From: a phage
Reading direction: 5' to 3' (one strand)
Length of the DNA stretch: 40,867 nucleotides
Sequence record: PQ821741.1
Positions 1,369 to 37,123 of this stretch are shown one piece after another (positions within the stretch are counted from its first letter, which is position 1; each line of letters begins with the position of its first letter). Below the pieces are notes generated by a model, which ran no database searches, had not been told where the DNA came from, and was given only the letters and a program-made list of their open reading frames with translations. Both the position numbers and the translations under genes were made by a program.

Positions 1369-1737
1369 ATGGCTATGTCAAACATGACTTACAACAACGT
1401 TTTCGACCACGCTTACGAAATGCTGAAAGAAAACATCCGTTATGATGACATCCGCGACACTGATGACCTGCACGATGCTGTTCATATGGCTGCCGATAGC
1501 GCCGTTCCGCACTATTACAGTGACGTTTTCAGCGTAATGGCGAGCGAGGGCATTGACCTTGAGTTCGAAGACTCTGGCCTGATGCCGGACACCAAGGACG
1601 TAATCCGTATCCTGCAAGCTCGCATCTATGAGCAACTCACGATTGACCTCTGGGAAGACGCTGAGGACTTGCTGAACGAGTACCTTGAGGAAGTCGAAGA
1701 AGAGGAAGAGGAAGACTACGCAGAGGATGAAGAGTAA
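1369..1737 (+). CDS. 0.3: Ocr, DNA-mimic anti-restriction protein (gene 0.3)
   Basis: 122 aa, acidic C-terminus, N-terminus [27 protein letters not shown] as in T7 Ocr. Confidence 0.93.
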
Positions 1738-1877
1738 TGGTTAAATACGGTCTAACAAGAGAAATGCTCCAAACGTACCGCGTGGCTATGGCTTATGGTG
1801 CTTCTTTCGGGTACTGTATGGCACAATTAGCACAGACATACCGAGCACGTAAGGCGATGTACGGTAATAGTAAGTGA
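1737..1877 (+). CDS. 0.4: Gene 0.4-like small early protein (46 aa)
   Basis: ATG overlaps 0.3 stop (TAATG); [12 protein letters not shown]... resembles T7 gp0.4. Confidence 0.6.
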   Translation: MVKYGLTREMLQTYRVAMAYGASFGYCMAQLAQTYRARKAMYGNSK

Positions 1878-1925
1878 TAGGCTCAAGGTCGCTCCATGCG
1901 AGTGGCCTTTATGATTATCATTTAA
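1878..1925 (+). promoter_or_regulatory. RNase III hairpin (ggtcgct...gagtggccttt atgattat motif)
   Basis: T7-type RNase III site motif; second copy at 2288-2335 inside the duplication. Confidence 0.55.
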
Positions 1926-1991
1926 CATGCAATAGGACTAACACCATGAGTAATCTTCTGGTCACCTCCTAGGTCTAGGTGTATGCGCTCT

Positions 1992-2147
1992 ATGCCGGAC
2001 ACCAAGGACGTAATCCGTATCCTGCAAGCTCGCATCTATGAGCAACTCACGATTGACCTCTGGGAAGACGCTGAGGACTTGCTGAACGAGTACCTTGAGG
2101 AAGTCGAAGAAGAGGAAGAGGAAGACTACGCAGAGGATGAAGAGTAA
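1992..2147 (+). pseudogene. Ocr C-terminal fragment ORF created by the duplication (51 aa from internal Met)
   Basis: Identical to 3' 156 nt of gene 0.3; no convincing RBS. Confidence 0.4.
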
Positions 2148-2287
2148 TGGTTAAATACGGTCTAACAAGAGAAATGCTCCAAACGTACCGCGTGGCTATG
2201 GCTTATGGTGCTTCTTTCGGGTACTGTATGGCACAATTAGCACAGACATACCGAGCACGTAAGGCGATGTACGGTAATAGTAAGTGA
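2147..2287 (+). CDS. 0.4: Second identical copy of gene 0.4-like ORF
   Basis: Exact copy of 1737-1877 within the duplicated unit. Confidence 0.5.
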   Translation: MVKYGLTREMLQTYRVAMAYGASFGYCMAQLAQTYRARKAMYGNSK

Positions 2288-2355
2288 TAGGCTCAAGGTC
2301 GCTCCATGCGAGTGGCCTTTATGATTATCATTTAACATGCAATAGGACTAACACC

Positions 2356-2556
2356 ATGAGTAAACTTCTGGCAACCTCCAAAATCCAAGGCCAATGCACT
2401 GTAACGCTGCGTGAGTACTATCACGGGTCAATGGGATGCACCTATGTTGTGCGCTATGGCAAACAGGTCACACATTGGGTAAACCTGATTTTAGCGCAAG
2501 AGGAGTATCAAGCCTGTGTGATACACCAAGCAACATGTGCAGGTTGGAACGATTGA
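2356..2556 (+). CDS. Hypothetical early protein (66 aa)
   Basis: ATG after RNase III site; ORF MSKLLATSKIQGQC...; no T7 counterpart recognised. Confidence 0.5.
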   Translation: MSKLLATSKIQGQCTVTLREYYHGSMGCTYVVRYGKQVTHWVNLILAQEEYQACVIHQATCAGWND

Positions 2557-2574
2557 CAACAGCCTTCAAGTCTA

Positions 2575-2630
2575 CCAAGTGGTAAACTCAAGGTCGCTCC
2601 TAGCGAGTGGCCTTCATGATTATCACTTTA
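2575..2630 (+). promoter_or_regulatory. RNase III hairpin (R0.5-like)
   Basis: ctcaaggtcgctcctagcgagtggccttcatgattatc. Confidence 0.55.
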
Positions 2631-2644
2631 CTTACGAGGGAGTA

Positions 2645-2779
2645 ATGCATATGCTTACTATCGGTCTGCTCACCGCTCTAGGTCTAGCTGTAGGCGCATC
2701 CTTTGGGAAGTCTTTGGGTGTAGCTGTAGGCGCTTACTTGGTGGCTTGTATCATCACGGGAGCACTACGCAAATGTTGA
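2645..2779 (+). CDS. 0.5: Gene 0.5-like small membrane protein
   Basis: [22 protein letters not shown]...; hydrophobic; RBS gaggga upstream. Confidence 0.65.
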
Positions 2780-2949
2780 AACATTACGTTATGCCTATCC
2801 ACACTTCCAACGGGGCAACCGTATGCACACCTGATGGGTTCGCAATGAAACAGCGAATCGAACGCCTTAAGCGTGAACTGCGCATCAACCGCAAGATTAA
2901 CAAGATAGGTTCCAGCTATGATCATAACGAACATAAAGGACACACTGAA

Positions 2950-4029
2950 ATGAACATTACCGACATCATGAACGCTATCGACGCAATCAAAGCACTTCCA
3001 ATCTGTGAACTTGACAAGCGTCAAGGTATGCTTATCGACTTACTGGTCGAGATGGTCAACAGCGAAACGTGTGATGGCGAGATAACCGAACTGAATCAGG
3101 CACTTGAGCATCAAGATTGGTGGACTACCTTGAAGTGTCTCACGGCTGACGCTGGGTTCAAGATGCTTGGTAATGGTCACTTCTCGGCTGCTTATAGTCA
3201 CCCGCTGCTGCCCAACAGAGTGATTAAGGTGGGCTTTAAGAAAGAGGATTCAGGCGCAGCCTATACCGCATTCTGCCGCATGTATCAGGGCCGTGCCGGT
3301 ATCCCTAACGTCTACGATGTGCAGCGCCACGCTGGATGCTATACGGTGGTACTCGATGCACTGAATGATTGCGAGCGTTTCAACAATGATGAACATTATA
3401 AATACGCTGAGATTGCAAGCGACATCATTGACTACAAATCAGATGCGCACGATGGGCTAACTGGATGGGATGGCGAGTTCGTCGAGACTTGTAAGCTAAT
3501 CCGCAAGTTCTTTGAGGGCATCGCTTCGTTCGACATGCACAGCGGGAACATCATGTTCAGTGACGATGATGTACCATACATTACCGACCCGGTATCATTC
3601 TCGCAGAAGAAAGATGGTGGCGCATTCAGCATTGACCCTGAGGAACTCATCAAGGAAGTCGAGGAGGTCGCACACCAGCGAGCAATCGACCGCGCTAAGG
3701 AACGTAAGGCACGTCATGTGGGTCGAGTGGAGGCACGTAAAGTAAAGCGCCGTAACCGTAAGGCACGTAAAGCACACCAAGAGAAGCACAAGCGAATGGT
3801 TGCTGCGTGGCGCATGGCTGAGCGTCAGGAACGACGCAACCACGAGGTAGCTGTAGATGTACTGGGAAGGACCAATAACGCTATGCTCTGGGTCAACATG
3901 CTCGCTATGGACTTTAAGGCTCTTGAGGAACGAATTGCGGCGAACTGGTTTCAAGCTGACCGGATGACTATCGCTAACGGTCTTCCGCTCAACATCGACA
4001 AGCAACTTGACGCAATGCTAATGGGCTGA
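2950..4029 (+). CDS. 0.7: Gene 0.7 serine/threonine protein kinase and host shut-off protein
   Basis: 359 aa from [23 protein letters not shown], matches T7 gp0.7; an in-frame upstream 0.6-like reading (from 2773) has no intervening stop. Confidence 0.88.
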
Positions 4030-4095
4030 TAGTCTTATCTTACAGGTCATCTGACTGAGGGTGGCCTGAATAGATACGATTTACTAACTGGAAGA
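4030..4095 (+). promoter_or_regulatory. Probable RNase III site R1
   Basis: Position between 0.7 and gene 1; hairpin-capable ggtcat...gggtggcct. Confidence 0.35.
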
Positions 4096-4103
4096 GGCAC
4101 TAA

Positions 4104-6755
4104 ATGAACACGATTAACATCGCTAAGAACGACTTCTCTGACATCGAACTGGCTGCTATTCCGTTCAACACTCTGGCTGACCATTACGGTGAGCGCTTAG
4201 CTCGCGAACAGTTGGCCCTTGAGCATGAGTCTTACGAAATGGGTGAAGCACGATTCCGCAAGATGTTTGAGCGTCAACTTAAAGCTGGTGAGGTTGCGGA
4301 TAACGCTGCCGCTAAGCCTCTCATTACTACCCTACTCCCTAAAATGATTGCACGCATCAACGACTGGTTTGAGGAAGTGAAAGCTAAGCGCGGCAAACGC
4401 CCGACAGCCTTCCAGTTCCTGCAAGAAATCAAGCCGGAAGCTGTAGCGTACATCACCATTAAGACCACTCTGGCTTGCCTAACTAGCGCAGACAATACAA
4501 CCGTTCAGGCTGTAGCAAGCGCAATAGGTCGCGCAATTGAGGATGAGGCACGCTTCGGTCGTATCCGCGACCTTGAAGCTAAGCACTTCAAGAAAAACGT
4601 TGAGGAACAACTCAACAAGCGCGTAGGGCACGTCTACAAGAAAGCATTCATGCAGGTTGTCGAAGCGGACATGCTCTCTAAGGGTCTACTTGGTGGCGAG
4701 GCGTGGTCTTCGTGGCATAAGGAAGACTCCATTCACGTTGGGGTGCGCTGCATTGAGATGCTCATTGAGTCAACCGGAATGGTTAGCTTACATCGTCAAA
4801 ACGCTGGCGTAGTCGGTCAAGACTCTGAGACTATCGAACTCGCACCGGAATACGCTGAGGCTATCGCAACCCGTGCAGGTGCCCTAGCGGGTATCTCTCC
4901 TATGTTCCAGCCTTGCGTAGTTCCTCCTAAGCCTTGGACCGGTATTACTGGTGGAGGTTATTGGGCTAACGGTCGCCGTCCTCTGGCGCTGGTGCGTACT
5001 CACAGTAAGAAAGCACTGATGCGATACGAAGACGTTTACATGCCTGAGGTGTACAAAGCGATTAACATTGCGCAAAACACCGCATGGAAAATCAATAAGA
5101 AAGTCCTAGCGGTCGCCAACGTGATAACCAAGTGGAAGCACTGCCCTGTAGAGGACATCCCAGCGATTGAGCGTGAAGAACTCCCGATGAAACCGGAAGA
5201 CATCGACACGAATCCTGAGGCTCTCACCGCGTGGAAACGTGCCGCTGCCGCTGTGTACCGTAAAGACAAGGCACGCAAGTCTCGCCGTATCAGCCTTGAG
5301 TTCATGCTTGAGCAAGCCAACAAGTTCGCTAACCATAAGGCCATCTGGTTCCCTTACAACATGGACTGGCGTGGTCGCGTTTACGCTGTGTCAATGTTCA
5401 ACCCGCAAGGTAACGATATGACCAAAGGACTGCTGACGCTGGCTAAAGGTAAACCAATCGGCAAGGAAGGTTACTACTGGCTGAAAATCCACGGTGCAAA
5501 CTGCGCTGGCGTTGATAAAGTTCCGTTCCCTGAGCGCATCAAGTTCATTGAGGACAACCACGAGAACATCATGGCCTGCGCTAAGTCTCCTCTGGAAAAC
5601 ACTTGGTGGGCTGAGCAAGATTCTCCATTCTGCTTCCTAGCGTTCTGCTTTGAGTACGCTGGGGTACAGCACCACGGCCTGAGCTACAACTGCTCTCTTC
5701 CGCTGGCGTTCGATGGGTCTTGCTCCGGCATTCAGCACTTCTCCGCGATGCTTCTCGATGAGGTAGGCGGTCTTGCTGTTAACCTGCTGCCTAGTGCAAC
5801 AGTTCAGGACATCTACGGGATTGTCGCTAAGAAAGTCAATGTGATTCTGCAAGAAGATGTAATCAACGGGACCGACAACGAAGTAGTTACCGTGACTGAT
5901 GAGAACACTGGTGAAATCTCTGAGAAAGTCAAGCTGGGCACCAAGGCGCTGGCTGGTCAGTGGCTGGCTTATGGTGTTACTCGTAGTGTGACTAAGCGTT
6001 CAGTCATGACGCTGGCGTATGGGTCCAAAGAGTTCGGCTTCCGTCAACAAGTGCTGGAAGATACCATTCAGCCAGCTATTGATTCAGGCAAGGGTCTGAT
6101 GTTTACTCAACCGAATCAGGCTGCTGGGTACATGGCTAAGCTGATTTGGGAAGCTGTAAGTGTGACGGTGGTAGCTGCGGTTGAAGCAATGAACTGGCTC
6201 AAGTCTGCTGCTAAGCTGCTGGCTGCTGAGGTCAAAGATAAGAAGACTGGAGAGATTCTTCGCAAGCGTTGCGCTGTACACTGGGTGACTCCTGATGGCT
6301 TCCCTGTATGGCAGGAATACAAGAAGCCTATTCAGACTCGCTTGAACCTGATATTCCTCGGTCAGTTCCGTCTACAGCCGACCATTAACACAAACAAGGA
6401 TAGTGAGATTGACGCACACAAGCAGGAGTCCGGCATAGCTCCTAACTTTGTGCATAGCCAAGATGGTAGCCACCTACGTAAGACTGTAGTGTGGGCGCAC
6501 GAGAAGTACGGAATCGAATCGTTTGCACTGATTCACGACTCCTTCGGGACCATTCCGGCTGACGCTGCCAACCTGTTCAAAGCTGTGCGCGAAACTATGG
6601 TTGACACCTATGAGTCTTGTGATGTACTGGCTGACTTCTACGACCAGTTCGCTGACCAGTTGCATGAGTCTCAATTGGACAAAATGCCAGCACTTCCGGC
6701 TAAAGGTAACTTGAACCTCCAAGACATCCTTAAGTCAGACTTCGCGTTCGCGTAA
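4104..6755 (+). CDS. 1: T7 RNA polymerase (single-subunit DNA-directed RNA polymerase)
   Basis: 883 aa, MNTINIAKNDFSDIELAAIPFNTLADHYGERLAREQ...; identical length to T7 gp1. Confidence 0.98.
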   Translation: MNTINIAKNDFSDIELAAIPFNTLADHYGERLAREQLALEHESYEMGEARFRKMFERQLKAGEVADNAAAKPLITTLLPKMIARINDWFEEVKAKRGKRPTAFQFLQEIKPEAVAYITIKTTLACLTSADNTTVQAVASAIGRAIEDEARFGRIRDLEAKHFKKNVEEQLNKRVGHVYKKAFMQVVEADMLSKGLLGGEAWSSWHKEDSIHVGVRCIEMLIESTGMVSLHRQNAGVVGQDSETIELAPEYAEAIATRAGALAGISPMFQPCVVPPKPWTGITGGGYWANGRRPLALVRTHSKKALMRYEDVYMPEVYKAINIAQNTAWKINKKVLAVANVITKWKHCPVEDIPAIEREELPMKPEDIDTNPEALTAWKRAAAAVYRKDKARKSRRISLEFMLEQANKFANHKAIWFPYNMDWRGRVYAVSMFNPQGNDMTKGLLTLAKGKPIGKEGYYWLKIHGANCAGVDKVPFPERIKFIEDNHENIMACAKSPLENTWWAEQDSPFCFLAFCFEYAGVQHHGLSYNCSLPLAFDGSCSGIQHFSAMLLDEVGGLAVNLLPSATVQDIYGIVAKKVNVILQEDVINGTDNEVVTVTDENTGEISEKVKLGTKALAGQWLAYGVTRSVTKRSVMTLAYGSKEFGFRQQVLEDTIQPAIDSGKGLMFTQPNQAAGYMAKLIWEAVSVTVVAAVEAMNWLKSAAKLLAAEVKDKKTGEILRKRCAVHWVTPDGFPVWQEYKKPIQTRLNLIFLGQFRLQPTINTNKDSEIDAHKQESGIAPNFVHSQDGSHLRKTVVWAHEKYGIESFALIHDSFGTIPADAANLFKAVRETMVDTYESCDVLADFYDQFADQLHESQLDKMPALPAKGNLNLQDILKSDFAFA

Positions 6756-6763
6756 CGTCAAAT

Positions 6764-6786
6764 TAATACGACTCACTATAGAGGGA
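6764..6786 (+). promoter_or_regulatory. T7 promoter phi1.1A
   Basis: taatacgactcactatagaggga. Confidence 0.85.
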
Positions 6787-6790
6787 CAAA

Positions 6791-6835
6791 CTCGAGGTCA
6801 TTCGCAAGAGTGGCCTTTATGGTTGACCTTCTTCC
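6791..6835 (+). promoter_or_regulatory. RNase III site R1.1
   Basis: ctcgaggtcattcgcaagagtggcctttatggttgacc. Confidence 0.5.
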
Positions 6836-6838
6836 GGT

Positions 6839-6861
6839 TAATACGACTCACTATAGGAGAA
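6839..6861 (+). promoter_or_regulatory. T7 promoter phi1.1B
   Basis: taatacgactcactataggagaa. Confidence 0.85.
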
Positions 6862-6939
6862 CCTTAAGGTTTAACTTTAAGACCCTTAAGTGTTAATTAG
6901 AGATTTAAAGTAAAGAATTACTAAGAGAGGACTTTAAGT
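6862..6939 (+). other. AT-rich region downstream of phi1.1A/B, candidate primary origin of replication
   Basis: AT-rich tract placed as in T7 primary origin (inference by position). Confidence 0.5.
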
Positions 6940-7068
6940 ATGCGTAACTTCGAAAAGATGACCAAACGTTCTAACCGTAACGCTCATGACTTCGAGGAAA
7001 CCAAAGGTCGCAAGTTTAATAAACCATTACGAACCCGTTCACATAAACGCTGCTGGGAGGGTCAGTAA
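6940..7068 (+). CDS. 1.1: Gene 1.1 protein (42 aa, basic)
   Basis: MRNFEKMTKRSNRNAHDFEE... Confidence 0.8.
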   Translation: MRNFEKMTKRSNRNAHDFEETKGRKFNKPLRTRSHKRCWEGQ

Positions 7069-7069
7069 G

Positions 7070-7327
7070 ATGGTACGTTTATATAGTGGGAACTTGAATG
7101 ACTTCAAGGCTGCTTGCAACAGGCTCTACCAGTTAGACTTTGCTGTTATTTGTGATGAATGGTACGATGCTTACAAACGCCTTGAGTGTATGCGCCTACG
7201 CGTAGAGGACAGGGCTGGAAATCTGATTGATACCAATACGTTCTGTCACCACGATGAAGACGTCTTGTACAATACGTGTACTGACTGGCTGAACCGCATG
7301 TACGACCAGTTGAAGGACTGGAAGTAA
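7070..7327 (+). CDS. 1.2: Gene 1.2, inhibitor of host dGTPase
   Basis: 85 aa MVRLYSGNLNDFKAACNRLYQLDFAVI... ends ...MYDQLKDWK as T7 gp1.2. Confidence 0.88.
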   Translation: MVRLYSGNLNDFKAACNRLYQLDFAVICDEWYDAYKRLECMRLRVEDRAGNLIDTNTFCHHDEDVLYNTCTDWLNRMYDQLKDWK

Positions 7328-7347
7328 TACGACTCAGTATAGGGATA
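7325..7347 (+). promoter_or_regulatory. T7 promoter phi1.3
   Basis: taatacgactcagtatagggata. Confidence 0.8.
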
Positions 7348-7362
7348 ACCCAGAGGTACTTC

Positions 7363-7800
7363 ATGAGAATACATTTTGACATTATGAGTCCATCCTTTCT
7401 CTCATGGGACAATGGTCGCCCAGTAGGAGCCTCTATTCGTAATGGCTATAAGAGGGTTAGATGTGGTGGTAAATGGTTAAATCATCACGTCCTAATCTGG
7501 GAACATTTTAACGGCCCAATCCCTGAGGGAATGGAGATAGACCACATTGACCGTAACAGAGGTAATAACGCACCAAGTAACCTGCGTCTTGTGACTCGCT
7601 CTCAAAATAGCAGAAACAAGTCTACACATAAGAACAACAAGTCTGGAATAAAGGGAGTGTACTGGCACAAACATAGAGAATACTGGTATGGTCAGTGTAA
7701 GAAAAATGGTCAAACATTCAGAACATCCTGCTGCCACACAAAGGAACAGGCGGCTTTACTACTTACTAAACTTAGAGAGGAAATAGGTTATGCAGATTAA
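7363..7800 (+). CDS. HNH homing endonuclease (HNH nuclease motif plus AP2-like DNA-binding region)
   Basis: HHVLIWEHFNGPIPEGMEIDHIDRNRGNNAPSNLRLVTRSQNSRN and GIKGVYWHKHREYWYGQ motifs; overlaps ligase start by 11 nt; not in T7 at this locus. Confidence 0.8.
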   Translation: MRIHFDIMSPSFLSWDNGRPVGASIRNGYKRVRCGGKWLNHHVLIWEHFNGPIPEGMEIDHIDRNRGNNAPSNLRLVTRSQNSRNKSTHKNNKSGIKGVYWHKHREYWYGQCKKNGQTFRTSCCHTKEQAALLLTKLREEIGYAD

Positions 7801-8863
7801 AACAATGCCATTTAAAGCTGTGTCTTTCGTAGAGTCTGCCATTAAGAAAGCTCTGGACAACGCTGGGTATCTTATAGCCGACATCAAGTACGATGGTGTA
7901 CGCGGGAACATCTGCGTAGACAATACCGCTAACAGTTGCTGGCTCTCTCGTGTATCAAAAACGATTCCGGCGCTTTCTTACCTTAATGGGTTCGATACAC
8001 GTTGGCAGCGTCTACTAAAGGATGACCGTTGCTTCTACCCTGATGGCTTCATGCTGGATTGCGAACTTATGGTCAAGGGAGTGGACTTCAATACTGGCTC
8101 CGGCCTTCTGCGGACCAAGTGGCTCAACAAGAAGAACATGCAATTCGATATTGGCGGCCCATATGAATCGTGGGACGCGAGCATGAAGGGACTTCCTTTC
8201 GGCCTTGACCCGAACTTACTAACAGTCAAGCTGTACGCCATCCTTCCGCTGCACATCGTGGAGTCTGGAGAAGACTGTGACGTTATGACGTTGCTAATGC
8301 AGGAACACGTTAAGAACATGCTGCCTCTGCTACAGGAATACTTCCCTGAAATCGAATGGCAAGCGGCTGAGTCTTACGAGGTCTACGACATGGTTGAACT
8401 ACAGCAACTGTACGAGAAGAAGCGTGAAGAAGGTCATGAGGGTCTCATTGTGAAAGACCCGATGTGTATCTATAAGCGCGGCAAGAAGTCCGGCTGGTGG
8501 AAGATGAAGCCAGAGAATGAGGCCGATGGTGTCGTTGTGGGACTCAACTGGGGAACTCCCGGTCTTGCCAACGAGGGAAAGGTGATTGGCTTCGAGGTTC
8601 TCCTTGAGTCTGGTCGAGTGGTATCCGCCAACAACATCTCTCAGGCACTTATGGAGGAGTTCACTAAGACTGTAGCTGAGGCAAGCGGTTACACACTAAC
8701 AGGTGGACCCGTAGTAATTCAAGATGGTCAACCAAAGGTCAACCCTTACGAGGGCTGGGCGTGCCAGATTAGCTACATGGAGGAAACCCCAGACGGCTCT
8801 CTGCGTCACCCATCGTTCGTAATGTTCCGTGGCACCGAGGACAACCCTCAAGAGAAAATGTAA
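7790..8863 (+). CDS. 1.3: ATP-dependent DNA ligase
   Basis: 357 aa; KYDGVRG adenylation motif; C-terminus ...DGSLRHPSFVMFRGTEDNPQEKM as T7 ligase. Confidence 0.95.
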   Translation: MQIKTMPFKAVSFVESAIKKALDNAGYLIADIKYDGVRGNICVDNTANSCWLSRVSKTIPALSYLNGFDTRWQRLLKDDRCFYPDGFMLDCELMVKGVDFNTGSGLLRTKWLNKKNMQFDIGGPYESWDASMKGLPFGLDPNLLTVKLYAILPLHIVESGEDCDVMTLLMQEHVKNMLPLLQEYFPEIEWQAAESYEVYDMVELQQLYEKKREEGHEGLIVKDPMCIYKRGKKSGWWKMKPENEADGVVVGLNWGTPGLANEGKVIGFEVLLESGRVVSANNISQALMEEFTKTVAEASGYTLTGGPVVIQDGQPKVNPYEGWACQISYMEETPDGSLRHPSFVMFRGTEDNPQEKM

Positions 8864-8865
8864 AC

Positions 8866-8900
8866 ACACTGGCTCACCTTAGGGTGGGCCTTTCTGCGTT
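8866..8900 (+). terminator. Early terminator TE (rho-independent)
   Basis: ggctcacc-ttag-ggtgggcc hairpin followed by tttctgcgttt. Confidence 0.85.
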
Positions 8901-8923
8901 TAATACGACTCACTAAAGGAGGT
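8901..8923 (+). promoter_or_regulatory. T7 promoter phi1.5
   Basis: taatacgactcactaaaggaggt. Confidence 0.85.
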
Positions 8924-8930
8924 ACACACC

Positions 8931-9077
8931 ATGATGTACTTAATACCATTATTCATCCCTTACGAGGGCTGGGCGTGCCAGATTAGCTACATGGAGGAAA
9001 CCCCAGACGGCTCTCTGCGTCACCCATCGTTCGTAATGTTCCGTGGCACCGAGGACAACCCTCAAGAGAAAATGTAA
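8931..9077 (+). pseudogene. Chimeric ORF from the duplication: 9 N-terminal codons of the small gene fused in frame to the last 39 codons of ligase
   Basis: MMYLIPLFI + PYEGWACQISYMEETPDGSLRHPSFVMFRGTEDNPQEKM; has the native RBS ggagg. Confidence 0.6.
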
Positions 9078-9079
9078 AC

Positions 9080-9114
9080 ACACTGGCTCACCTTAGGGTG
9101 GGCCTTTCTGCGTT
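9080..9114 (+). terminator. Second copy of TE terminator (in duplication)
   Basis: Identical to 8866-8900. Confidence 0.8.
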
Positions 9115-9137
9115 TAATACGACTCACTAAAGGAGGT
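9115..9137 (+). promoter_or_regulatory. Second copy of phi1.5 promoter (in duplication)
   Basis: Identical to 8901-8923. Confidence 0.8.
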
Positions 9138-9144
9138 ACACACC

Positions 9145-9234
9145 ATGATGTACTTAATACCATTATTCATCGTCATCCTAGGATGCCTTGCGCTCACCTG
9201 TAGCGACGACGATATGCCAGATGGTCACGCTTAA
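9145..9234 (+). CDS. Small protein, gene 1.4/1.5-like (29 aa)
   Basis: MMYLIPLFIVILGCLALTCSDDDMPDGHA; RBS aggagg. Confidence 0.7.
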   Translation: MMYLIPLFIVILGCLALTCSDDDMPDGHA

Positions 9235-9254
9235 TACGACTCACTAAAGGAGAC
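9232..9254 (+). promoter_or_regulatory. T7 promoter phi1.6
   Basis: taatacgactcactaaaggagac. Confidence 0.85.
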
Positions 9255-9259
9255 ACTAT

Positions 9260-9520
9260 ATGTTCCAACTTCATTACAACAAAAGCATTAAGAGTTTCAC
9301 GGTTCGCCGTGCTGACCGCTCAATCCTATGTGCGAGCGAACGTCGAGCTAAGTTACCTCTTATTGGTGACACAGTTCCTTTGGCACCGAGCGTCCACATC
9401 ATTATCACTCGTGGTGACTTTGAGAAAGCAATAGACAAGAAACGTCCGGTTCTTAGTGTGGCTGTGACCCGCTTCCCGTTCGTCCGTCTGTTACTCAAAC
9501 GTATCAAGGAGGTGTTCTGA
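9260..9520 (+). CDS. 1.6: Gene 1.6 protein
   Basis: 86 aa [21 protein letters not shown]...LLKRIKEVF. Confidence 0.85.
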
Positions 9521-10043
9521 TGGGATGCATAGCGTGCTTAGAGAAAGACGACCGTTACCCACATACCTGTAATAAAGGAGCTAACGATATGACCGAACGT
9601 GAACAAGAGATTATCATTAAGTTAATAGACAATAACGAAGGTCGCCCAGATGATTTGAATGGCTGCGGACTACTCTGCTCTAATGTCCCTTGTCACCTCT
9701 GCCCAGCAAATAACAATCAAAAGATAACCTTAGGTGAAATCCGAGCGATGGACCCACGTAAACCTAAACTGGATAAACCAGAGGTAACTCCTACAGATGA
9801 CCAGCAAGCAACCGAGTCAATCGAAGGTGTCACTAAGCCTTCCCATTACATGCTGTTCGACGACATTGAGGCTATCGAAGTGATTGCCCGTTCAATGACT
9901 CGTGAGCAGTTCAAAGGTTATTGCTTCGGGAACATCTTAAAGTACAGACTACGTGCTGGTAAGAAATCCGAACTGGCTTACTTAGAGAAAGACATGGCTA
10001 AGGCCAACTTCTATGGAGAACTCTATGAGCAACATAAAGACAA

Positions 10044-10056
<13 letters not shown>
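9520..10056 (+). CDS. 1.7: Gene 1.7 nucleotide kinase
   Basis: 178 aa; TGATG overlap with 1.6; matches T7 gp1.7. Confidence 0.85.
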
Positions 10057-10561
<505 letters not shown>

Positions 10562-10564
<3 letters not shown>

Positions 10565-10584
10565 TACGACTCACTATTAGGGAA
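10562..10584 (+). promoter_or_regulatory. T7 promoter phi2.5
   Basis: taatacgactcactattagggaa. Confidence 0.8.
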
Positions 10585-10629
10585 GACTCCCTCTGAGAAA
10601 CTAAACTAAACCTAAAGGAGATTAACATT

Positions 10630-11331
10630 ATGGCTAAGAAGATTTTCACCTCTGCGCTGGGTACTGCTGAACCTTACGCTTACATCTCTAAGCCGGACTA
10701 CGGCAACGAAGAGCGCGGCTTTGGGAACCCTCGTGGTGTCTACAAAGTTGACCTGACTATTCCCAACAAAGACCCGCGCTGCCAGCGTATGGTCGATGAA
10801 ATCGTGAAGTGTCACGAAGAGGCTTATGCTGCTGCCGTTGAGGAATACGAAGCGAATCCACCTGCGGTAGCTCGCGGCAAGAAACCGCTGAAACCGTATG
10901 AGGGTGACATGCCGTTCTTCGATAACGGTGACGGTACGACTACCTTTAAGTTCAAATGCTACGCGTCTTTCCAAGACAAGAAGACCAAAGAGACCAAGCA
11001 CATCAATCTGGTTGTGGTTGACTCCAAAGGTAAGAAGATTGAAGACGTTCCGATTATCGGTGGCGGCTCTAAGCTGAAAGTCAAGTACTCTCTGGTCCCG
11101 TACAAGTGGAACACTGCTGTGGGTGCGAGCGTTAAGCTGCAACTTGAATCCGTAATGCTGGTAGAACTGGCTACCTTTGGTGGCGGTGAAGACGATTGGG
11201 CTGACGAAGTTGAAGAGAACGGCTATGTTGCCTCTGGTTCTGCCAAAGCGAGCAAACCACGCGACGAAGAAAGCTGGGACGAAGACGACGAAGAGTCCTA
11301 CGAAGAAGAAGACGAAGACGGAGACTTCTAA
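10630..11331 (+). CDS. 2.5: Single-stranded DNA-binding protein gp2.5
   Basis: 233 aa; acidic C-terminal tail ...EEEDEDGDF. Confidence 0.95.
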   Translation: MAKKIFTSALGTAEPYAYISKPDYGNEERGFGNPRGVYKVDLTIPNKDPRCQRMVDEIVKCHEEAYAAAVEEYEANPPAVARGKKPLKPYEGDMPFFDNGDGTTTFKFKCYASFQDKKTKETKHINLVVVDSKGKKIEDVPIIGGGSKLKVKYSLVPYKWNTAVGASVKLQLESVMLVELATFGGGEDDWADEVEENGYVASGSAKASKPRDEESWDEDDEESYEEEDEDGDF

Positions 11332-11787
11332 GTGGCTGGCGCATACGCTGCGCGTGGTATCCGAAAGGTCGGGACATTCCGTTCCGGCCTAGAAGATAAG
11401 GTCTCTAAGCAGCTAGAGGGTAAGGGCATTAAGTTCGACTATGAACTGTGGAAAATCCCTTACGTTGTCCCTGCGAGCAACCATGTGTATACTCCAGACT
11501 TCCTGCTGCCTAACGGAATCTTCATTGAAACCAAAGGTTTATGGGAGAGTGACGACCGAAAGAAACACTTATTGATTCGCGAACAGTTTCCCGAACTGGA
11601 CATCCGTCTGGTTTTCTCAAGCTCGCGCACCAAGCTGTACAAAGGGTCTCCGACCAGCTACGGTGAGTGGTGCGAGAAGCACGGTATTCTGTTTGCTGAC
11701 AAATTAATTCCTGTGGAATGGCTCAAAGAACCCAAAAAGGAGGTGCCATTTGACAAGCTGAAACAATCGAAGGGAGGTAAGAAATAA
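11332..11787 (+). CDS. 3: Endonuclease I (Holliday junction resolvase)
   Basis: 151 aa, GTG start directly after 2.5 stop; ...PDFLLPNGIFIETKGLWESDDRKKHLL... Confidence 0.9.
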   Translation: MAGAYAARGIRKVGTFRSGLEDKVSKQLEGKGIKFDYELWKIPYVVPASNHVYTPDFLLPNGIFIETKGLWESDDRKKHLLIREQFPELDIRLVFSSSRTKLYKGSPTSYGEWCEKHGILFADKLIPVEWLKEPKKEVPFDKLKQSKGGKK

Positions 11788-12242
11788 TGTCGCGTGTACA
11801 ATTCAAACAACGTGAATCCACTGACGCAATCTTTGTCCACTGCTCTGCTACAAAGCCAAGTCAGAATGTGGGGGTCCGTGAGATTCGCCAGTGGCATAAA
11901 GAGCAAGGTTGGCTCGATGTTGGGTATCACTTTATCATCAAGCGTGATGGTACTGTAGAGGCGGGTCGAGACGAGATGGCTGTAGGTTCTCACGCTAAGG
12001 GCCACAATCACAACTCTATTGGTGTCTGCCTTGTAGGTGGTATCGACGATAAAGGTAAGTTCGAAGCTAACTTTACGCCAGCCCAAATGCAATCCCTTCG
12101 CTCACTGCTTGTCACACTTCTGGCTAAGTACGAAGGTGCTGTACTGAAAGCCCATCACGATGTCGCACCTAAGGCTTGCCCATCGTTCGACCTTAAGCGT
12201 TGGTGGGAGAAGAACGAACTGGTCACTTCTGACCGTGGATAA
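11787..12242 (+). CDS. 3.5: Lysozyme (N-acetylmuramoyl-L-alanine amidase, T7 RNAP inhibitor)
   Basis: 151 aa MSRVQFKQRESTDAIFVHCSATKPSQNVGVREI... Confidence 0.95.
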   Translation: MSRVQFKQRESTDAIFVHCSATKPSQNVGVREIRQWHKEQGWLDVGYHFIIKRDGTVEAGRDEMAVGSHAKGHNHNSIGVCLVGGIDDKGKFEANFTPAQMQSLRSLLVTLLAKYEGAVLKAHHDVAPKACPSFDLKRWWEKNELVTSDRG

Positions 12243-12243
12243 T

Positions 12244-12261
12244 TAATTGAACTCACTAAAG

Positions 12262-12266
<5 letters not shown>
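12244..12266 (+). promoter_or_regulatory. T7 promoter phi3.8
   Basis: taattgaactcactaaagggaga. Confidence 0.8.
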
Positions 12267-14017
<1,751 letters not shown>

Positions 14018-14081
14018 TCGAGTCTTGGATGACTTCAAGTGCCCTTGTGGTAATTGGGACTGCGATGGGTATAAATATCAT

Positions 14082-14104
14082 TAATACGACTCACTAAAGG
14101 AGAC
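14082..14104 (+). promoter_or_regulatory. T7 promoter phi4.3
   Basis: taatacgactcactaaaggagac. Confidence 0.85.
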
Positions 14105-14111
14105 ACACACC

Positions 14112-14324
14112 ATGTTCAAACTGATTAAGAAATTAGGCCAACTGCTGGTCCGTATGTACAACGTGGAAGCCAAGCGTCTGAACGATGAGGCTCGTAAAGA
14201 GTCCACTCAGTCACGCGCTCTTGCTATTCGAGCCAACGAACTGGCTGACAGTGCATCCAATAAGGTTACAGAAGCTGCCCGTGTAGCCAACCAAGCCCAG
14301 CAACTTTCCAAATTCTTTGAGTAA
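14112..14324 (+). CDS. 4.3: Gene 4.3 protein
   Basis: 70 aa MFKLIKKLGQLLVRMYNVEAKRLNDEARKE... Confidence 0.85.
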   Translation: MFKLIKKLGQLLVRMYNVEAKRLNDEARKESTQSRALAIRANELADSASNKVTEAARVANQAQQLSKFFE

Positions 14325-14343
14325 TCAAACAGGAGAAACCATT

Positions 14344-14607
14344 ATGTCAAACGTAGCTGAAACTATCCGCTTATCCGATACCGCTGACCAGTGGAACCGT
14401 CGAGTCCACATCAACGTCCGCAACGGTAAGGCGACTATGGTTTACCGCTGGAAGGACTCTAAGTCCTCTAAGAATCACACTCAGCGTATGACGTTGACAG
14501 ATGAGCAAGCACTGCGTCTGGTCAATGCGCTTACCAAAGCTGCCGTGACAGCAATCCATGAGGCTGGTCGCGTAGATGAAGCTATGGCTATCCTCGAAAA
14601 GATTTGA
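14344..14607 (+). CDS. 4.5: Gene 4.5 protein
   Basis: MSNVAETIRLSDTADQWNRRVHINVRNGKATMVYRW... Confidence 0.8.
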   Translation: MSNVAETIRLSDTADQWNRRVHINVRNGKATMVYRWKDSKSSKNHTQRMTLTDEQALRLVNALTKAAVTAIHEAGRVDEAMAILEKI

Positions 14608-14614
14608 TAGCTAA

Positions 14615-14660
14615 GAGTGGTATACTCAAGGTCGCCCAAGTGGTGGCCTTCATGAATATT
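14615..14660 (+). promoter_or_regulatory. RNase III site R4.7
   Basis: actcaaggtcgcccaagtggtggccttcatgaatatt. Confidence 0.55.
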
Positions 14661-14681
14661 ATTCGACTCACTATAGGAGGT
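14659..14681 (+). promoter_or_regulatory. T7 promoter phi4.7
   Basis: attcgactcactataggagg. Confidence 0.75.
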
Positions 14682-14687
14682 ATTACC

Positions 14688-15101
14688 ATGCGTGACCCTA
14701 AAGTTATCCAAGCAGAAATCGCTAAGTTGGAAGGTGAGCTAGCCGATGTACTGGCCCACGAGTCCATGACGCGCTCGGCTGTCCACATCTTGAAGAACTT
14801 AGGGTGGACTTGGACTCGTAAAGGTGGCTGGAAGAAACCTGAACCGAAGATGGACTTTAAGACGTTCGATAAGGACTCAATGACCCACATAAAGGCTGGT
14901 GATTGGGTTAAGATTGACACTGGAATAACTGGAGGATATGGCTACGTGAGGAACGTAAGCGGTAATATTGCGCGAGTCTCGTTTGTAGAACGCGTAACTT
15001 TCGCTGGTGCTGTGGTCCAAGAGTCGTCCAGAATGTACAATACTAACTACCTGAAAGTTGTATCTCATACCGAAATCGTTCGTGCTCTGACAGGTAAGTA
15101 A
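14688..15101 (+). CDS. 4.7: Gene 4.7 protein
   Basis: 137 aa MRDPKVIQAEIAKLEGELADVLAHE... Confidence 0.8.
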   Translation: MRDPKVIQAEIAKLEGELADVLAHESMTRSAVHILKNLGWTWTRKGGWKKPEPKMDFKTFDKDSMTHIKAGDWVKIDTGITGGYGYVRNVSGNIARVSFVERVTFAGAVVQESSRMYNTNYLKVVSHTEIVRALTGK

Positions 15102-15120
15102 TCAAATAGGAGAAATCAAT

Positions 15121-17352
15121 ATGATCGTTTCTGACATCGAAGCTAACGCCCTCTTAGAGAGCGTCACTAAGTTCCACTGCGGGGTTATCTACGACTACTC
15201 TACCGCTGAGTACGTAAGCTACCGTCCGAGTGACTTCGGTGCGTATCTGGATGCGCTGGAAGCCGAGGTTGCACGAGGCGGTCTTATTGTGTTCCACAAC
15301 GGTCACAAGTATGACGTTCCTGCATTGACAAAACTGGCAAAGCTGCAATTGAACCGAGAGTTCCACATTCCTCGTGAGAACTGTATCGACACCCTTGTGC
15401 TGTCACGCTTGATTCACTCTAACCTCAAGGACACCGACATGGGTCTTCTGCGTTCCGGTAAACTTCCGGGTAAACGCTTTGGGTCTCACGCTTTGGAGGC
15501 GTGGGGTTATCGCTTAGGCGAGATGAAGGGTGAATACAAGGACGACTTTAAGCGTATGCTTGAAGAGCAGGGTGAAGAATACGTTGACGGAATGGAGTGG
15601 TGGAACTTCAACGAAGAGATGATGGCCTATAACGTTCAGGACGTTGTGGTCACTAAGGCTCTCCTTGAGAAATTACTGTCAGACAAGCACTATTTCCCTT
15701 TAGGTTTAGAGCACGTTAATTATGATTCTATAATCTTTTGGAAAGACTCTATCGAAGCTATTGATGTTGAACATAGAGCAGCTTGGTTGTTAGCTAAACA
15801 GGAGCGTAATGGTTTCCCATTTGACGCTAAGGCAATCGAGGAGTTGTACGTAGAGTTAGCTGCTCGCCGCTCTGAGTTGCTCCGCAAATTGACCGAAACG
15901 TTCGGCTCATGGTATCAGCCCAAAGGTGGCACCGAAATGTTCTGCCATCCGAGGACTGGTAAGCCACTGCCCAAATACCCTCGCATTAAGACACCTAAAG
16001 TTGGTGGTATCTTTAAGAAGCCTAAGAACAAGGCACAGCGAGAAGGCCGTGAGCCTTGCGAACTGGATACCCGCGAGTACGTTGCTGGTGCCCCTTACAC
16101 CCCAGTTGAGCATGTAGTGTTTAACCCATCGTCTCGTGACCACATCCAGAAGAAACTCCAAGAGGCTGGATGGGTCCCAACCAAGTACACCGATAAGGGT
16201 GCGCCTGTGGTGGACGATGAGGTACTCGAAGGAGTACGTGTAGATGACCCTGAGAAGCAAGCTGCAATCGACCTCATTAAAGAATACTTGATGATTCAGA
16301 AGCGAATCGGACAGTCTGCTGAGGGAGACAAGGCGTGGCTTCGTTACGTTGCCGATGATGGTAAGATTCACGGCTCTGTAAACCCTAACGGGGCAGTTAC
16401 TGGTCGCGCTACCCATGCTTTCCCCAACCTTGCGCAAATTCCGGGTGTGCGTTCACCTTATGGAGAGCAGTGTCGCGCTGCTTTTGGTGCTGAACATCAC
16501 CTAGACGGTATTACTGGTAAGCCTTGGGTTCAGGCGGGTATCGACGCATCCGGTCTGGAACTACGCTGCTTGGCCCACTTCATGGCTCGCTTTGATAACG
16601 GCGAGTACGCTCACGAGATTCTTAATGGAGACATCCACACTAAGAACCAGATGGCTGCCGACGCATCCGGTCTGGAACTACGCTGCTTGGCCCACTTCAT
16701 GGCTCGCTTTGATAACGGCGAGTACGCTCACGAGATTCTTAATGGAGACATCCACACTAAGAACCAGATGGCTGCCGAATTGCCTACCCGTGATAACGCC
16801 AAGACGTTCATCTATGGGTTCCTCTACGGTGCTGGCGATGAGAAGATTGGGCAGATTGTCGGTGCTGGTAAAGAGCGTGGTAAGGAACTCAAGAAGAAAT
16901 TCCTTGAGAACACCCCTGCGATTGCGGCACTCCGAGAGTCTATCCAACAGACACTTGTTGAGTCCTCTCAGTGGGTAGCTGGCGAACAGCGAGTCAAGTG
17001 GAAACGCCGCTGGATTAAAGGTCTGGATGGTCGCAAGGTACACGTTCGTAGTCCTCACGCTGCCCTGAATACCCTACTGCAATCCGCTGGTGCGCTCATC
17101 TGCAAACTGTGGATTATCAAGACCGAAGAGATGCTCGTAGAGAAAGGCTTGAAGCATGGCTGGGATGGGGACTTTGCGTACATGGCGTGGGTCCACGATG
17201 AAATCCAAGTGGGTTGTCGTACCGAAGAGATTGCTCAGGTGGTCATTGAGACAGCACAAGAAGCGATGCGCTGGGTTGGAGACCACTGGAACTTCCGGTG
17301 TCTTCTGGATACAGAAGGTAAGATGGGTCCTAATTGGGCCGTATGTCACTAA
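15121..17352 (+). CDS. 5: DNA polymerase (family A), carrying an internal 39-aa in-frame tandem duplication
   Basis: 743 aa against 704 in T7; otherwise near-identical to T7 gp5. Confidence 0.95.
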   Translation: MIVSDIEANALLESVTKFHCGVIYDYSTAEYVSYRPSDFGAYLDALEAEVARGGLIVFHNGHKYDVPALTKLAKLQLNREFHIPRENCIDTLVLSRLIHSNLKDTDMGLLRSGKLPGKRFGSHALEAWGYRLGEMKGEYKDDFKRMLEEQGEEYVDGMEWWNFNEEMMAYNVQDVVVTKALLEKLLSDKHYFPLGLEHVNYDSIIFWKDSIEAIDVEHRAAWLLAKQERNGFPFDAKAIEELYVELAARRSELLRKLTETFGSWYQPKGGTEMFCHPRTGKPLPKYPRIKTPKVGGIFKKPKNKAQREGREPCELDTREYVAGAPYTPVEHVVFNPSSRDHIQKKLQEAGWVPTKYTDKGAPVVDDEVLEGVRVDDPEKQAAIDLIKEYLMIQKRIGQSAEGDKAWLRYVADDGKIHGSVNPNGAVTGRATHAFPNLAQIPGVRSPYGEQCRAAFGAEHHLDGITGKPWVQAGIDASGLELRCLAHFMARFDNGEYAHEILNGDIHTKNQMAADASGLELRCLAHFMARFDNGEYAHEILNGDIHTKNQMAAELPTRDNAKTFIYGFLYGAGDEKIGQIVGAGKERGKELKKKFLENTPAIAALRESIQQTLVESSQWVAGEQRVKWKRRWIKGLDGRKVHVRSPHAALNTLLQSAGALICKLWIIKTEEMLVEKGLKHGWDGDFAYMAWVHDEIQVGCRTEEIAQVVIETAQEAMRWVGDHWNFRCLLDTEGKMGPNWAVCH
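16542..16775 (+). repeat. Exact in-frame tandem duplication, 117-bp unit (16542-16658 and 16659-16775)
   Basis: 120 nt identity at offset 117 with cga microhomology; encodes DASGLELRCLAHFMARFDNGEYAHEILNGDIHTKNQMAA twice. Confidence 0.95.
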
Positions 17353-17814
17353 TTCTAAAGGAGAAATTATTATGGCTATGACCAAGAAATTTAAAGTGTC
17401 CTTCGATGTTACCGCTAAGATGCCATCTGACGTTCAGGCAATCTTAGAGAAAGACATGCTACACCTGTGTAAGCAGGTTGGCTCCGGTGCTATCGTGCCA
17501 GATGGTAAACAGAAGGAAATGATTGTACAGTTCCTGACATATGGTTGGAGACCACTGGAACTTCCGGTGTCTTCTGGATACAGAAGGTAAGATGGGTCCT
17601 AATTGGGCCGTATGTCACTAATTCTAAAGGAGAAATTATTATGGCTATGACCAAGAAATTTAAAGTGTCCTTCGATGTTACCGCTAAGATGCCATCTGAC
17701 GTTCAGGCAATCTTAGAGAAAGACATGCTACACCTGTGTAAGCAGGTTGGCTCCGGTGCTATCGTGCCAGATGGTAAACAGAAGGAAATGATTGTACAGT
17801 TCCTGACATATGGT
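17277..17814 (+). repeat. Exact tandem duplication, 269-bp unit (17277-17545 and 17546-17814)
   Basis: 272 nt identity at offset 269 with ggt microhomology; spans gene 5 3' end, intergenic RBS and 5' 56 codons of gene 5.5. Confidence 0.95.
17372..17590 (+). pseudogene. Truncated gene 5.5 copy fused out of frame to a duplicated gene 5 tail (72 aa)
   Basis: First 56 codons identical to gene 5.5, then frame-shifted tail WRPLELPVSSGYRR*. Confidence 0.7.
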
Positions 17815-17940
17815 ATGGAAGGTGTGATGACGTTCGTAGTGCGTACAGCGTTTCGTGAGGCCATCAAGGACATGCACGAAGAGTATGCCGATAAGGACTC
17901 CTTCAAACTATCTCCTGCAACAGTACGGGAGGTGTTCTAA
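17641..17940 (+). CDS. 5.5: Gp5.5 (H-NS-binding protein)
   Basis: 99 aa MAMTKKFKVSFDVTAKM...SPATVREVF. Confidence 0.9.
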   Translation: MAMTKKFKVSFDVTAKMPSDVQAILEKDMLHLCKQVGSGAIVPDGKQKEMIVQFLTYGMEGVMTFVVRTAFREAIKDMHEEYADKDSFKLSPATVREVF

Positions 17941-35052: not shown

Positions 35053-35736
35053 ATGGCTAACGTAATTAAAACAGTTTTGACTTACCCGTTAGATGGCTCC
35101 ACTCGTGATTTTAATATCCCGTTTGAGTATCTAGCCCGTAAGTTCGTAGTGGTAACTCTTATTGGTGTAGACCGCAAGGTCCTTACGATTAATACAGACT
35201 ACCGTTTTGCTACTCGCACTACCATCTCATTAACCAAGGCTTGGGGTCCAGCGGATGGATATACTACCATCGAGTTGCGCCGAGTAACCTCAACTACCGA
35301 CCGATTGGTTGACTTTACAGATGGTTCAATCCTCCGTGCATATGACCTTAACGTGGCTCAGATTCAGACTATGCATGTGGCAGAAGAGGCACGTGACTTA
35401 ACTGCGGATACAATCGGTGTCAATAGTGACGGTCACTTGGATGCCCGTGGTCGTCGAATTGTGAACCTAGCGAACGCTGTAGATGATTATGATGCCATCA
35501 ACCTACGTCAGGTTAAGCTGTGGAACAATAGTGCGTATCAATCAGCCGTGAACGCGAAGACCTCTGAGACGAACGCTAAGACCTCTGAGACAAACGCCTT
35601 AACATACCGCAATTCTGCTGCTGCTAGTGCCACCGCTGCAAGCACTTCTGAGACGAACGCGAAGACCTCTGAGACGAACGCGAAGACCTCTGAGACGAAC
35701 GCGAAGACCTCTGAGATTACTGCGAAGTTCCTATAA
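35053..35736 (+). pseudogene. 17: Tail fibre gene 17, N-terminal part, ending at premature TAA
   Basis: MANVIKTVLTY...FNIPFEYLARKFVVVTLIGVDRKVLT... matches T7/T3 gp17 N-terminus; frame ends ...TSEITAKFL* at 35734-36. Confidence 0.85.
35556..35723 (+). repeat. 21-bp tandem repeats encoding the heptad TSETNAK (2 units, 42-bp spacer, 4 units)
   Basis: gaagacctctgagacgaacgc repeated; two adjacent units are nucleotide-identical. Confidence 0.85.
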
Positions 35737-35868
35737 GGATGCTGCTGCTTCAAGTGCCACTGCTTCTGCTGCTAGTGCAGCTACCTGTAAGGCAGTTGCT
35801 ATAAGGATGCTGCTGCTTCAAGTGCCACTGCTTCTGCTGCTAGTGCAGCTACCTCTAAGGCAGAGGCC
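35733..35868 (+). repeat. Imperfect 68-bp tandem repeat inside gene 17 (35733-35800 and 35801-35868)
   Basis: First ~55 nt identical, 3' ends differ; copy 1 is +1 relative to the gene frame and carries TAA/TAG/TAA stops. Confidence 0.85.
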
Positions 35869-36489
35869 GACCGCGCGGAGCTACGTGCAAACCAAGCAGG
35901 TGGAGCTAGGGTTATAAACGGAATCTATCCAGATTCTAGTGGAAGCGTAACACTCACTACTGATGACATCAAAGACCCATCTGGTGTTACCATAATGATG
36001 GCTGTTCGATCTATGATTGACGCTATCTTTCCTGTCGGTATTCGCATGGATTGGCCTCTCGCTTCCCTTCCCGATAATCCAACACTTGGTGTTAAGTTTC
36101 TTAGGTTGGATGGGTCTAGCTTTGATAAAACACAGTACCCCAAGCTGGCTGCCATATATCCGTCTGGAGTTTTGCCAGATTTACGTGGTGAGTTTATTCG
36201 TGGCTGGGATGACGGGCGCGGGGTTGATGGTGGGCGCGTTGTTTTAACTGGTCAGAGCCAATCAGTACAGCAGCATACTCATGGTCTAGCGATGGCATAC
36301 AGTTCAGAGAGCGGTTACAAGGACAAGCTAGGCGCTGGCCCTAACTCTGACATGATTCCGATTAAAGATATGATTAAAGTAACCACTTTTACTGGTTCTG
36401 GTGAGTATTACTTAAAGGCGAATGATTCAACAGGTGTTGAAACTCGCCCGCGCAACGTCGCATTTAACTTCATCGTGAGGGCCGCATAA
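35803..36489 (+). pseudogene. 17: Tail fibre gene 17, C-terminal part with tip 1 (in frame with N-terminal part but separated by stops)
   Basis: KDAAASSATASAASAATSKAEADRAE...GEFIRGWDDGRGVDGGR...TRPRNVAFNFIVRAA*; no own start or RBS. Confidence 0.8.
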
Positions 36490-36841: not shown

Positions 36842-37123
36842 AGAGGGCGCGGATTAATGAGTGCTCAGGGCGATGCCATTCGGAATATTACTGGTCGCAT
36901 TAGGGGCGGGTCATCTGGGTCTTATGGTAAAATCTTCCTGGATGAATCTAGTGGTGCTTTTTTCCCTTCCGGTGAGGATGGAGAACAGTTCCATCCTTCA
37001 TCGACACCTCTACCTTATGGGAGATACAACACTGTAGATTTTGATGCTAGCAGGGTAGTCCCAACTGCCGACGAAAACCGCCCAAGAAACGTTGCGTGGA
37101 ATATGATTGTGAGGGCATCGTAA
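36539..37123 (+). other. Promoterless, startless second tail-fibre C-terminal cassette (tip 2)
   Basis: Reading frame opens after TGA at 36536-38; shared 298-bp stem then divergent tip ...NRPRNVAWNMIVRAS*; no RBS; first ATG is the internal Met-Met at 36608. Confidence 0.75.

Follow-up and report, generated by a model that had tools for sequence, protein, structure and literature searches.

The window analysed here is sequence record PQ821741.1, a stretch of 40,867 nucleotides from a phage related to T7, in which five segments occur twice in direct, head-to-tail order. Their junctions are read, with a probability of roughly 55%, as real, recent and microhomology-associated tandem duplications in phage DNA, the duplicated units being passengers that would have survived by sparing genes. 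Two properties of the sequence argue for real junctions, made by a polymerase or by recombination and then filtered by selection, namely an excess of microhomology at the junctions and the sparing of open reading frames (ORFs) by the units. Both are unexpected if the duplications were unmerged contig overlaps or inserts planted at random.

Five duplications and their junctions

Duplications were called by a scan for exact runs in which s[i] = s[i+p], by Tandem Repeats Finder (TRF), by repeat search and by direct comparison of one copy with the other. All procedures agreed on five events, with periods of 410, 214, 163, 117 and 269 bp, four of the five being nucleotide-perfect. The copies are located as follows:

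1582-1991 (copy 1) and 1992-2401 (copy 2), + strand: 410-bp duplication, 19 mismatches, run excess undefined
8743-8956 (copy 1) and 8957-9170 (copy 2), + strand: 214-bp duplication, 0 mismatches, excess of 1 nt (C)
10044-10206 (copy 1) and 10207-10369 (copy 2), + strand: 163-bp duplication, 0 mismatches, excess of 3 nt (ATG)
16542-16658 (copy 1) and 16659-16775 (copy 2), + strand: 117-bp duplication, 0 mismatches, excess of 3 nt (CGA)
17274-17542 (copy 1) and 17543-17811 (copy 2), + strand: 269-bp duplication, 0 mismatches, excess of 3 nt (GGT, 17812-17814)

The copy number is two at every one of the five, and a copy-by-copy check found neither runs of N nor gaps at the junctions. The copies are undiverged, and therefore the duplications are recent. 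In the 410-bp event the initial 372 nt match fully and all 19 mismatches fall within the final 38 nt of copy 1 (1954-1991). An initial annotation of the window had listed five direct head-to-tail duplications of 117-410 bp, with a degenerate junction at 1582 only, perfect copies at the other four and 1-3 bp of microhomology at those four; each of these statements agrees with the present data, and the sole coordinate to be corrected is the start of the last duplication, where the run begins at 17274 and not at 17277. Hairpin propensity at the ten duplication boundaries did not differ from that at random positions of the genome. All five events lie in the left 42% of the genome, within its variable early and middle region, an arrangement with P ~0.012 under uniform placement and ~0.023 when conditioned on ORF-sparing, both calculated post hoc.

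At the four clean junctions the exact run exceeds the period by ATG (163 bp), CGA (117 bp), GGT (269 bp) and C (214 bp), while a random tandem junction is extended by chance by a mean of 0.67 nt. The probability that at least three of four events show an excess of at least 3 nt is 5.0e-4 analytically and 5.8e-4 empirically in this genome; for the excess to reach 10 nt or more when summed across the four junctions, P = 0.003-0.004. For the 410-bp event, the junction of which is complex rather than clean, a microhomology arm is undefined. The suggestion of the initial annotation that the events carry the signature of recent slippage or of microhomology-mediated joining is supported by the undiverged copies and by microhomology above chance, and template switching would also fit.

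These values bear directly on the reading that the duplications exist in no DNA molecule and were generated during assembly or finishing, either by contigs or amplicons joined without merging their overlaps or by assembler loops, which is considered unlikely although it deserves serious weight. Unmerged overlaps would produce junctions at arbitrary bases, and the observed microhomology would then have a P of ~5e-4 to 4e-3. The junctions without Ns or gaps disfavour an artefact, as does the fact that the overlap lengths do not correspond to one constant k. On the other hand, unit sizes of 117-410 bp are on the scale of reads or inserts, shorter exact duplications are absent, and the location of all events in the variable early and middle region counts in favour of an assembly origin. 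A heterotype origin of the four exact duplications, from two strains, was ruled out: there are 0 differences over 117-269 nt, versus a divergence of 5-8% among co-occurring relatives, and exact identity over 163-269 nt excludes two strains at this divergence.

Gene boundaries and the DNA polymerase repeat

Sparing of ORFs was evaluated by placing units at random on the de-duplicated genome, which is 90.5% coding. Placements strictly inside one coding sequence amounted to 51-71% for the four unit lengths that shift the reading frame and to 76% for the 117-bp length. In the window all four frameshifting events straddle gene boundaries, an outcome that would occur by chance with P = 0.019, and ocr, the ligase gene and genes 1.7, 1.8, 2, 5 and 5.5 each keep an intact copy with respect to them. 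Were the duplications an artefact, sparing by four of four frameshifting events would likewise have P ~0.02.

Copy 1 of the 410-bp unit runs from codon 72 to the end of ocr, through the complete gene 0.4 (1737-1877) and a conserved intergenic element, into the start of the next ORF. The ocr gene (1369-1737) is intact despite the duplication. Copy 2 contains an ORF for a C-terminal fragment of Ocr (1983-2147; 'MRS' followed by Ocr 72-122) and a second gene 0.4 (2147-2287), which is thus present twice, and an ORF of 66 aa (2356-2556), which starts inside this copy, is intact. In the 214-bp event, copy 1 takes in the final 120 nt of the ligase gene, whose stop codon is at 8861-8863, and reaches 26 nt into the gene 1.5 homologue, which is intact from its start at 9145 in copy 2. 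A TE-type terminator hairpin (8871-8901 and 9085-9115) and a T7-type promoter core (8901-8919 and 9115-9133) occur once in each copy, and the fusion creates a chimeric ORF of 48 aa (8931-9077) in which 8 aa of gp1.5 are followed by the 40 C-terminal aa of the ligase.

Gene 1.7, which stops at 10056, ends inside copy 1 of the 163-bp unit, and the greater part of gene 1.8 (10013-10204) lies there too, both genes being intact, whereas in copy 2 gene 1.8 is truncated at its 5' side and the end of the unit abuts the ATG of gene 2 (10370). In the 269-bp event, copy 1 includes the last 79 nt of the polymerase gene with its stop, continues through the ribosome-binding site between the genes and takes in 57 codons of gene 5.5 from its start at 17372; this first copy of gene 5.5 reads out of frame into copy 2. 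The latter carries a 3' fragment of the polymerase gene followed by the start of the intact gene 5.5 (17641-17940). An intact copy thus remains of each of the two genes that this event touches.

According to the initial annotation, several of the events hit essential functions. The gene map shows that four spare every gene, and that the 117-bp event alone alters an essential protein, in frame. The ligase gene (7790-8863), given there as hit together with its terminator, is intact, and the terminator, the promoter and the gene 1.5 start are merely doubled; the start of gene 2 is not hit either, given that the 163-bp unit stops directly before the ATG and that gene 2 retains its native upstream sequence. 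The polymerase active site is indeed affected, residues D475-A513 being repeated by the 117-bp event, but the change is a 39-aa one in frame, with no frameshift. As to the explanations that had been offered, a mixed population or an assembly path is still live, while the notion that these duplications have damaged the genome is for the most part incorrect.

The sparing of ORFs at all events could also be claimed for adaptive amplification, in which each duplication would be selected for gene dosage, for an additional promoter and terminator, or for packaging length. The complete gene 0.4 within the 410-bp unit and the doubling of a terminator and a T7-type promoter by the 214-bp unit are in line with it. 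Nevertheless, the copy number is never above two, three of the five units have no complete gene, convergent duplications were seen in no relative examined, and the de-duplicated genome of 39,372 bp already has a normal size, leaving no length deficit to restore; adaptive amplification is hence regarded as extremely improbable. The known system closest to it is the genomic accordion of the poxvirus type, in which a whole gene is amplified under selection to many copies. The likeness lies in a recent viral tandem duplication that can be selected and then collapse. In the accordion a complete, selected gene reaches a copy number higher than two, while here there are two copies everywhere and most units are gene fragments: gene 0.4, in the 410-bp unit, is the sole gene contained whole, and the 214-bp unit adds just a terminator and a promoter.

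The 117-bp duplication is the only one located inside a gene, that of the DNA polymerase (15121-17352). It comprises 39 codons in frame and repeats polymerase residues D475-A513 in the numbering of T7 gp5, the residues having been mapped through the T7 gp5 chains 6n7w and 1t7p. The polymerase has 743 aa with the repeat and 704 aa without it, and the best 120 homologues among 5.8 billion clustered proteins measure 693-723 aa. Among the repeated residues, D475 is one of the two catalytic aspartates of T7 gp5, and H506 makes contact with the incoming nucleotide. An AlphaFold2 model of the 743-aa protein, built on an alignment of 32 sequences, had a mean predicted local distance difference test score (pLDDT) of 54.6, with residues 477-526 below 50, and is too poor to judge how the repeat would be accommodated.

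It could be imagined that a single viable genome carries all five duplications and that the D475-A513 repeat, covering motif A and the first half of the fingers, arose first, giving a working but switch-prone polymerase that acted as a duplication mutator and produced the other microhomology junctions. The only surprising reading of the data, that a polymerase could stay viable with motif A doubled and act in this manner, is without direct support and is deemed very improbable.

Relatives and the state of the record

The nucleotide identity of the window to Teseptimavirus genomes (T7, CICC 80001, N30 and Cedecea phage Yanou) is ~90-93% over most of its length. The RNA polymerase gene has 158 nt differences with that of T7, 145 of them at third codon positions, and the protein differs in 12 of 883 residues. 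As judged from its sequence, the window is a natural relative of T7 with a natural pattern of divergence. A map based on T7 and Yanou shows the usual genes, from 0.3 to 19.5, in order; homologues of T7 genes 1.4, 2.8, 5.3 and 7.7 are missing from the window. The T7-type promoters in the window are: TAATACGACTCACTATAGG. Between gene 1.2 and the ligase gene there is an ORF of 145 aa (7363-7800) that resembles the HNH endonucleases T7 gp3.8 and Yanou ORF12. Counted from one terminal repeat to the other, the genome comes to ~40,545 bp when the duplications are included and to 39,372 bp once they are removed, the second value being inside the normal range of the relatives, whose genomes have 38.2-40.9 kb. 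There is on file an engineered T7 record of 41,208 bp, and therefore packaging would be no obstacle to a duplicated genome of ~40,545 bp.

Exact tandem duplications of at least 40 bp numbered 0 in five complete relatives plus ~105 kb of partial relatives (~305 kb in total). The polymerase region is single-copy in 193 of 193 matching phage records, and so is each site covered by the metagenome contigs with identical Ocr or gp5.5 proteins (loci L007-L014). The closest metagenome contig, L015, with 98.4-98.8% identity, is collinear with the de-duplicated form at the 410-bp site. The duplicated units are thus single-copy in every relative examined. No exact match to the 117-, 269- or 214-bp junction sequences was found in IMG/VR, nor to the 117-bp junction in the metagenome contigs of the Joint Genome Institute (JGI). 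The closest relatives of the ocr region (98-99%), in the European Nucleotide Archive (ENA) assemblies ERZ24991165-8 (loci L011, L012 and L015-L017), occur only as contigs of 595-1029 bp; such short contigs hint at strain-level graph complexity at that locus in natural samples.

An engineered or in-silico derivative, in which the duplications were placed together into a natural genome, would account for five perfect events in one genome (that of 410 bp over its initial 372 nt) and none in its relatives. It would also account for the absence of the RNA polymerase, the duplicated DNA polymerase and gp1.8, as exact proteins, from a collection of ~15 billion proteins. However, exact copies of the Ocr and gp5.5 proteins were found in metagenome contigs of wastewater type, which indicates a natural backbone, and the window contains no vector, scar or reporter sequence. 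Random insertion would yield neither microhomology nor ORF-sparing, and would not cluster the events in the left 42% (P ~0.012); nor would a planted insert produce a 38-nt junction patch that looks like a diverged hybrid of two neighbouring gene starts. Deliberate placement is consequently judged quite improbable, and both this and the adaptive explanation fit worse than an artefact or real duplications.

Several features of the record speak about the DNA from which it was assembled. The ends of the contig are redundant: positions 34-480 are identical to 40421-40867 (447 nt) except for one G/A difference (54 versus 40441), and therefore the same locus is present as two alleles. The segment 40388-40420, a 33-nt quasi-palindrome, recurs at positions 1-33 as an exact reverse complement; it lies ~170 nt upstream of the T7 terminal-repeat homologue, which is found at two places:

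207-364 and 40594-40751: terminal-repeat homologue

The possibility that the left end is a natural palindrome was rejected, as it is an exact inversion of the quasi-palindrome. Just such a contig, beginning exactly at an inverted loop, would be expected from a snap-back or hairpin molecule. In T7 infection a hairpin containing the terminal repeat has been reported, according to the passage of PMC4281155 that cites Chung and Hinkle (1990), and the two structures may be linked.

Gene 17 (35053-36489) is broken by a 66-nt segment (35728-35793) that is identical in 64 of 66 positions to 35796-35861, lies out of register and introduces three in-frame stops. Considered as a near-tandem 68-nt repeat (35726-35861) with 2 mismatches, it constitutes a sixth, gene-breaking near-duplication. 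Removal of the 66 nt in the sequence restores a fibre of 456 aa. The interruption by stops is a lethal-looking defect of the record as written, and it lies outside the five duplications. Arrays of 21-nt repeats (35529-35723) code for NAKTSET heptads of the fibre shaft and do not occur in the fibres of T7, Yanou and EG1. Further on, an exact direct repeat of 299 nt (35931-36229 and 36544-36842) codes for a collar-type part of the fibre C-terminus, and the two repeats are followed by two different fibre tips, in ORFs 35995-36489 and 36608-37123. Many IMG/VR contigs derived from prophages encode tail-fibre C-termini with ~50% identity to the second of these tips. The arrangement could be one of alternative receptor-binding cassettes in series, or of two haplotypes in series. 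The gene 17 repeat, the 299-nt repeat and the redundant ends all lie beyond the range covered by the initial annotation.

The 38 nt that close copy 1 of the 410-bp unit (1954-1991) show ~80-85% resemblance to a hybrid of the start of the 66-aa ORF (2356) and the start of gene 0.5 (2645), and neither the window nor the relatives nor IMG/VR contained an exact source for them. The patch hints at a complex junction or at a second haplotype in the early region. Taken together, the redundant ends, gene 17, the 299-nt repeat and the 38-nt patch suggest that the DNA pool contained more than one haplotype or structure, and therefore the five junctions need not lie on one molecule.

From this side the assembly explanation gains weight. 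The recurrence of 34-480 at 40421-40867 with one G/A difference and the inverted copy of 40388-40420 at 1-33 are hallmarks of a raw assembly, the out-of-register near-copy with stops in gene 17 favours an artefact, and the 38-nt variant end of the 410-bp unit, together with the 299-nt repeat followed by two fibre tips, has the look of alleles placed in series. False duplications, of homotype or of heterotype, are known from genome assemblies, and the resemblance to them consists of adjacent exact or near-exact copies in an unpolished contig, with signs of more than one haplotype. False duplications typically have junctions at arbitrary bases, often beside gaps, and are not expected to display junction microhomology or to respect gene boundaries. 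Both are seen in the window, where the junctions combine an excess of microhomology with ORF-sparing at P ~0.02 and have no Ns.

Origin and meaning of the duplications

Five points weigh against real and recent duplications as the best explanation. The record looks like a raw, heterogeneous assembly and is not a finished clonal genome. Five undiverged duplications together are unprecedented among the relatives examined (0 in ~305 kb). Exact tandem repeats of shorter length (7-100 bp) show no excess over the relatives, when a lineage prone to slippage should show them. The polymerase repeat includes the catalytic D475, extends over the first half of the fingers and may well be deleterious. Finally, the arms of 1-3 bp are shorter than the 4 bp of the working definition of microhomology-mediated tandem duplications (MTDs), which is considered below. 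That all five events are carried by one viable genome is given a chance of roughly one in three.

If the junctions are real, the T7-type replisome could have made the duplications by slipping or by switching templates. Alternatively, a broken end could have found 1-3 bp of homology at an upstream site and annealed there, the partner being a sister genome, a concatemer or a co-infecting genome. The pattern of ORF-sparing would be the footprint of selection on replicating phage, the variants reaching high frequency being those that are not lethal. The duplications, which add a second copy of gp0.4, a further terminator and promoter and small chimeric ORFs, would be neutral or slightly deleterious passengers, and would be expected to be lost by homologous recombination between the copies.

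Our search of the literature on tandem duplications in T7 and on selection for genome size found no direct precedent. Recombination between short direct repeats in bacteriophage T7 was reportedly studied by Pierce, Kong and Masker in 1991, who are said to have measured deletions and not duplications. That system involves the same replisome and recombination machinery acting on short homologies, a duplication being the reciprocal of a deletion, and it predicts that perfect repeats of 117-410 bp would be unstable here.

The closest counterpart is found in the MTDs, of ~10-500 bp, which are described as universal, reversible and subclonally abundant in deep viral data, and which are defined, for working purposes, by microhomology arms of at least 4 bp at the start of the unit and directly after its end (bioRxiv 10.64898/2026.02.28.708716). 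In common with them, the window has ancestrally single-copy segments that are now doubled head to tail, flanked by short homology, with identical new copies, and its unit lengths of 117-410 bp fall within the MTD range. The arms, of 3, 3, 1 and 3 bp and undefined in the 410-bp event, do not reach 4 bp, so that the events work like MTDs yet fall outside their strict definition. They differ also in that five events are present at consensus level in one 40-kb genome, and in that one junction, the 410-bp one, is complex. The mechanism is therefore already of a known kind, microhomology-mediated tandem duplication, and the events are an ordinary sort of mutation or an oddity of assembly, with no new biological system or genetic element involved.

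Should the duplications be an artefact, they would serve as a warning about the deposition of raw phage contigs. If they are real, they would provide a natural instance of a family A polymerase that tolerates a 39-aa repeat across its active-site motif, and the window would offer a snapshot of tandem duplications arising and being filtered in a T7-type phage, in which those that span gene boundaries or remain in frame are the ones that survive.

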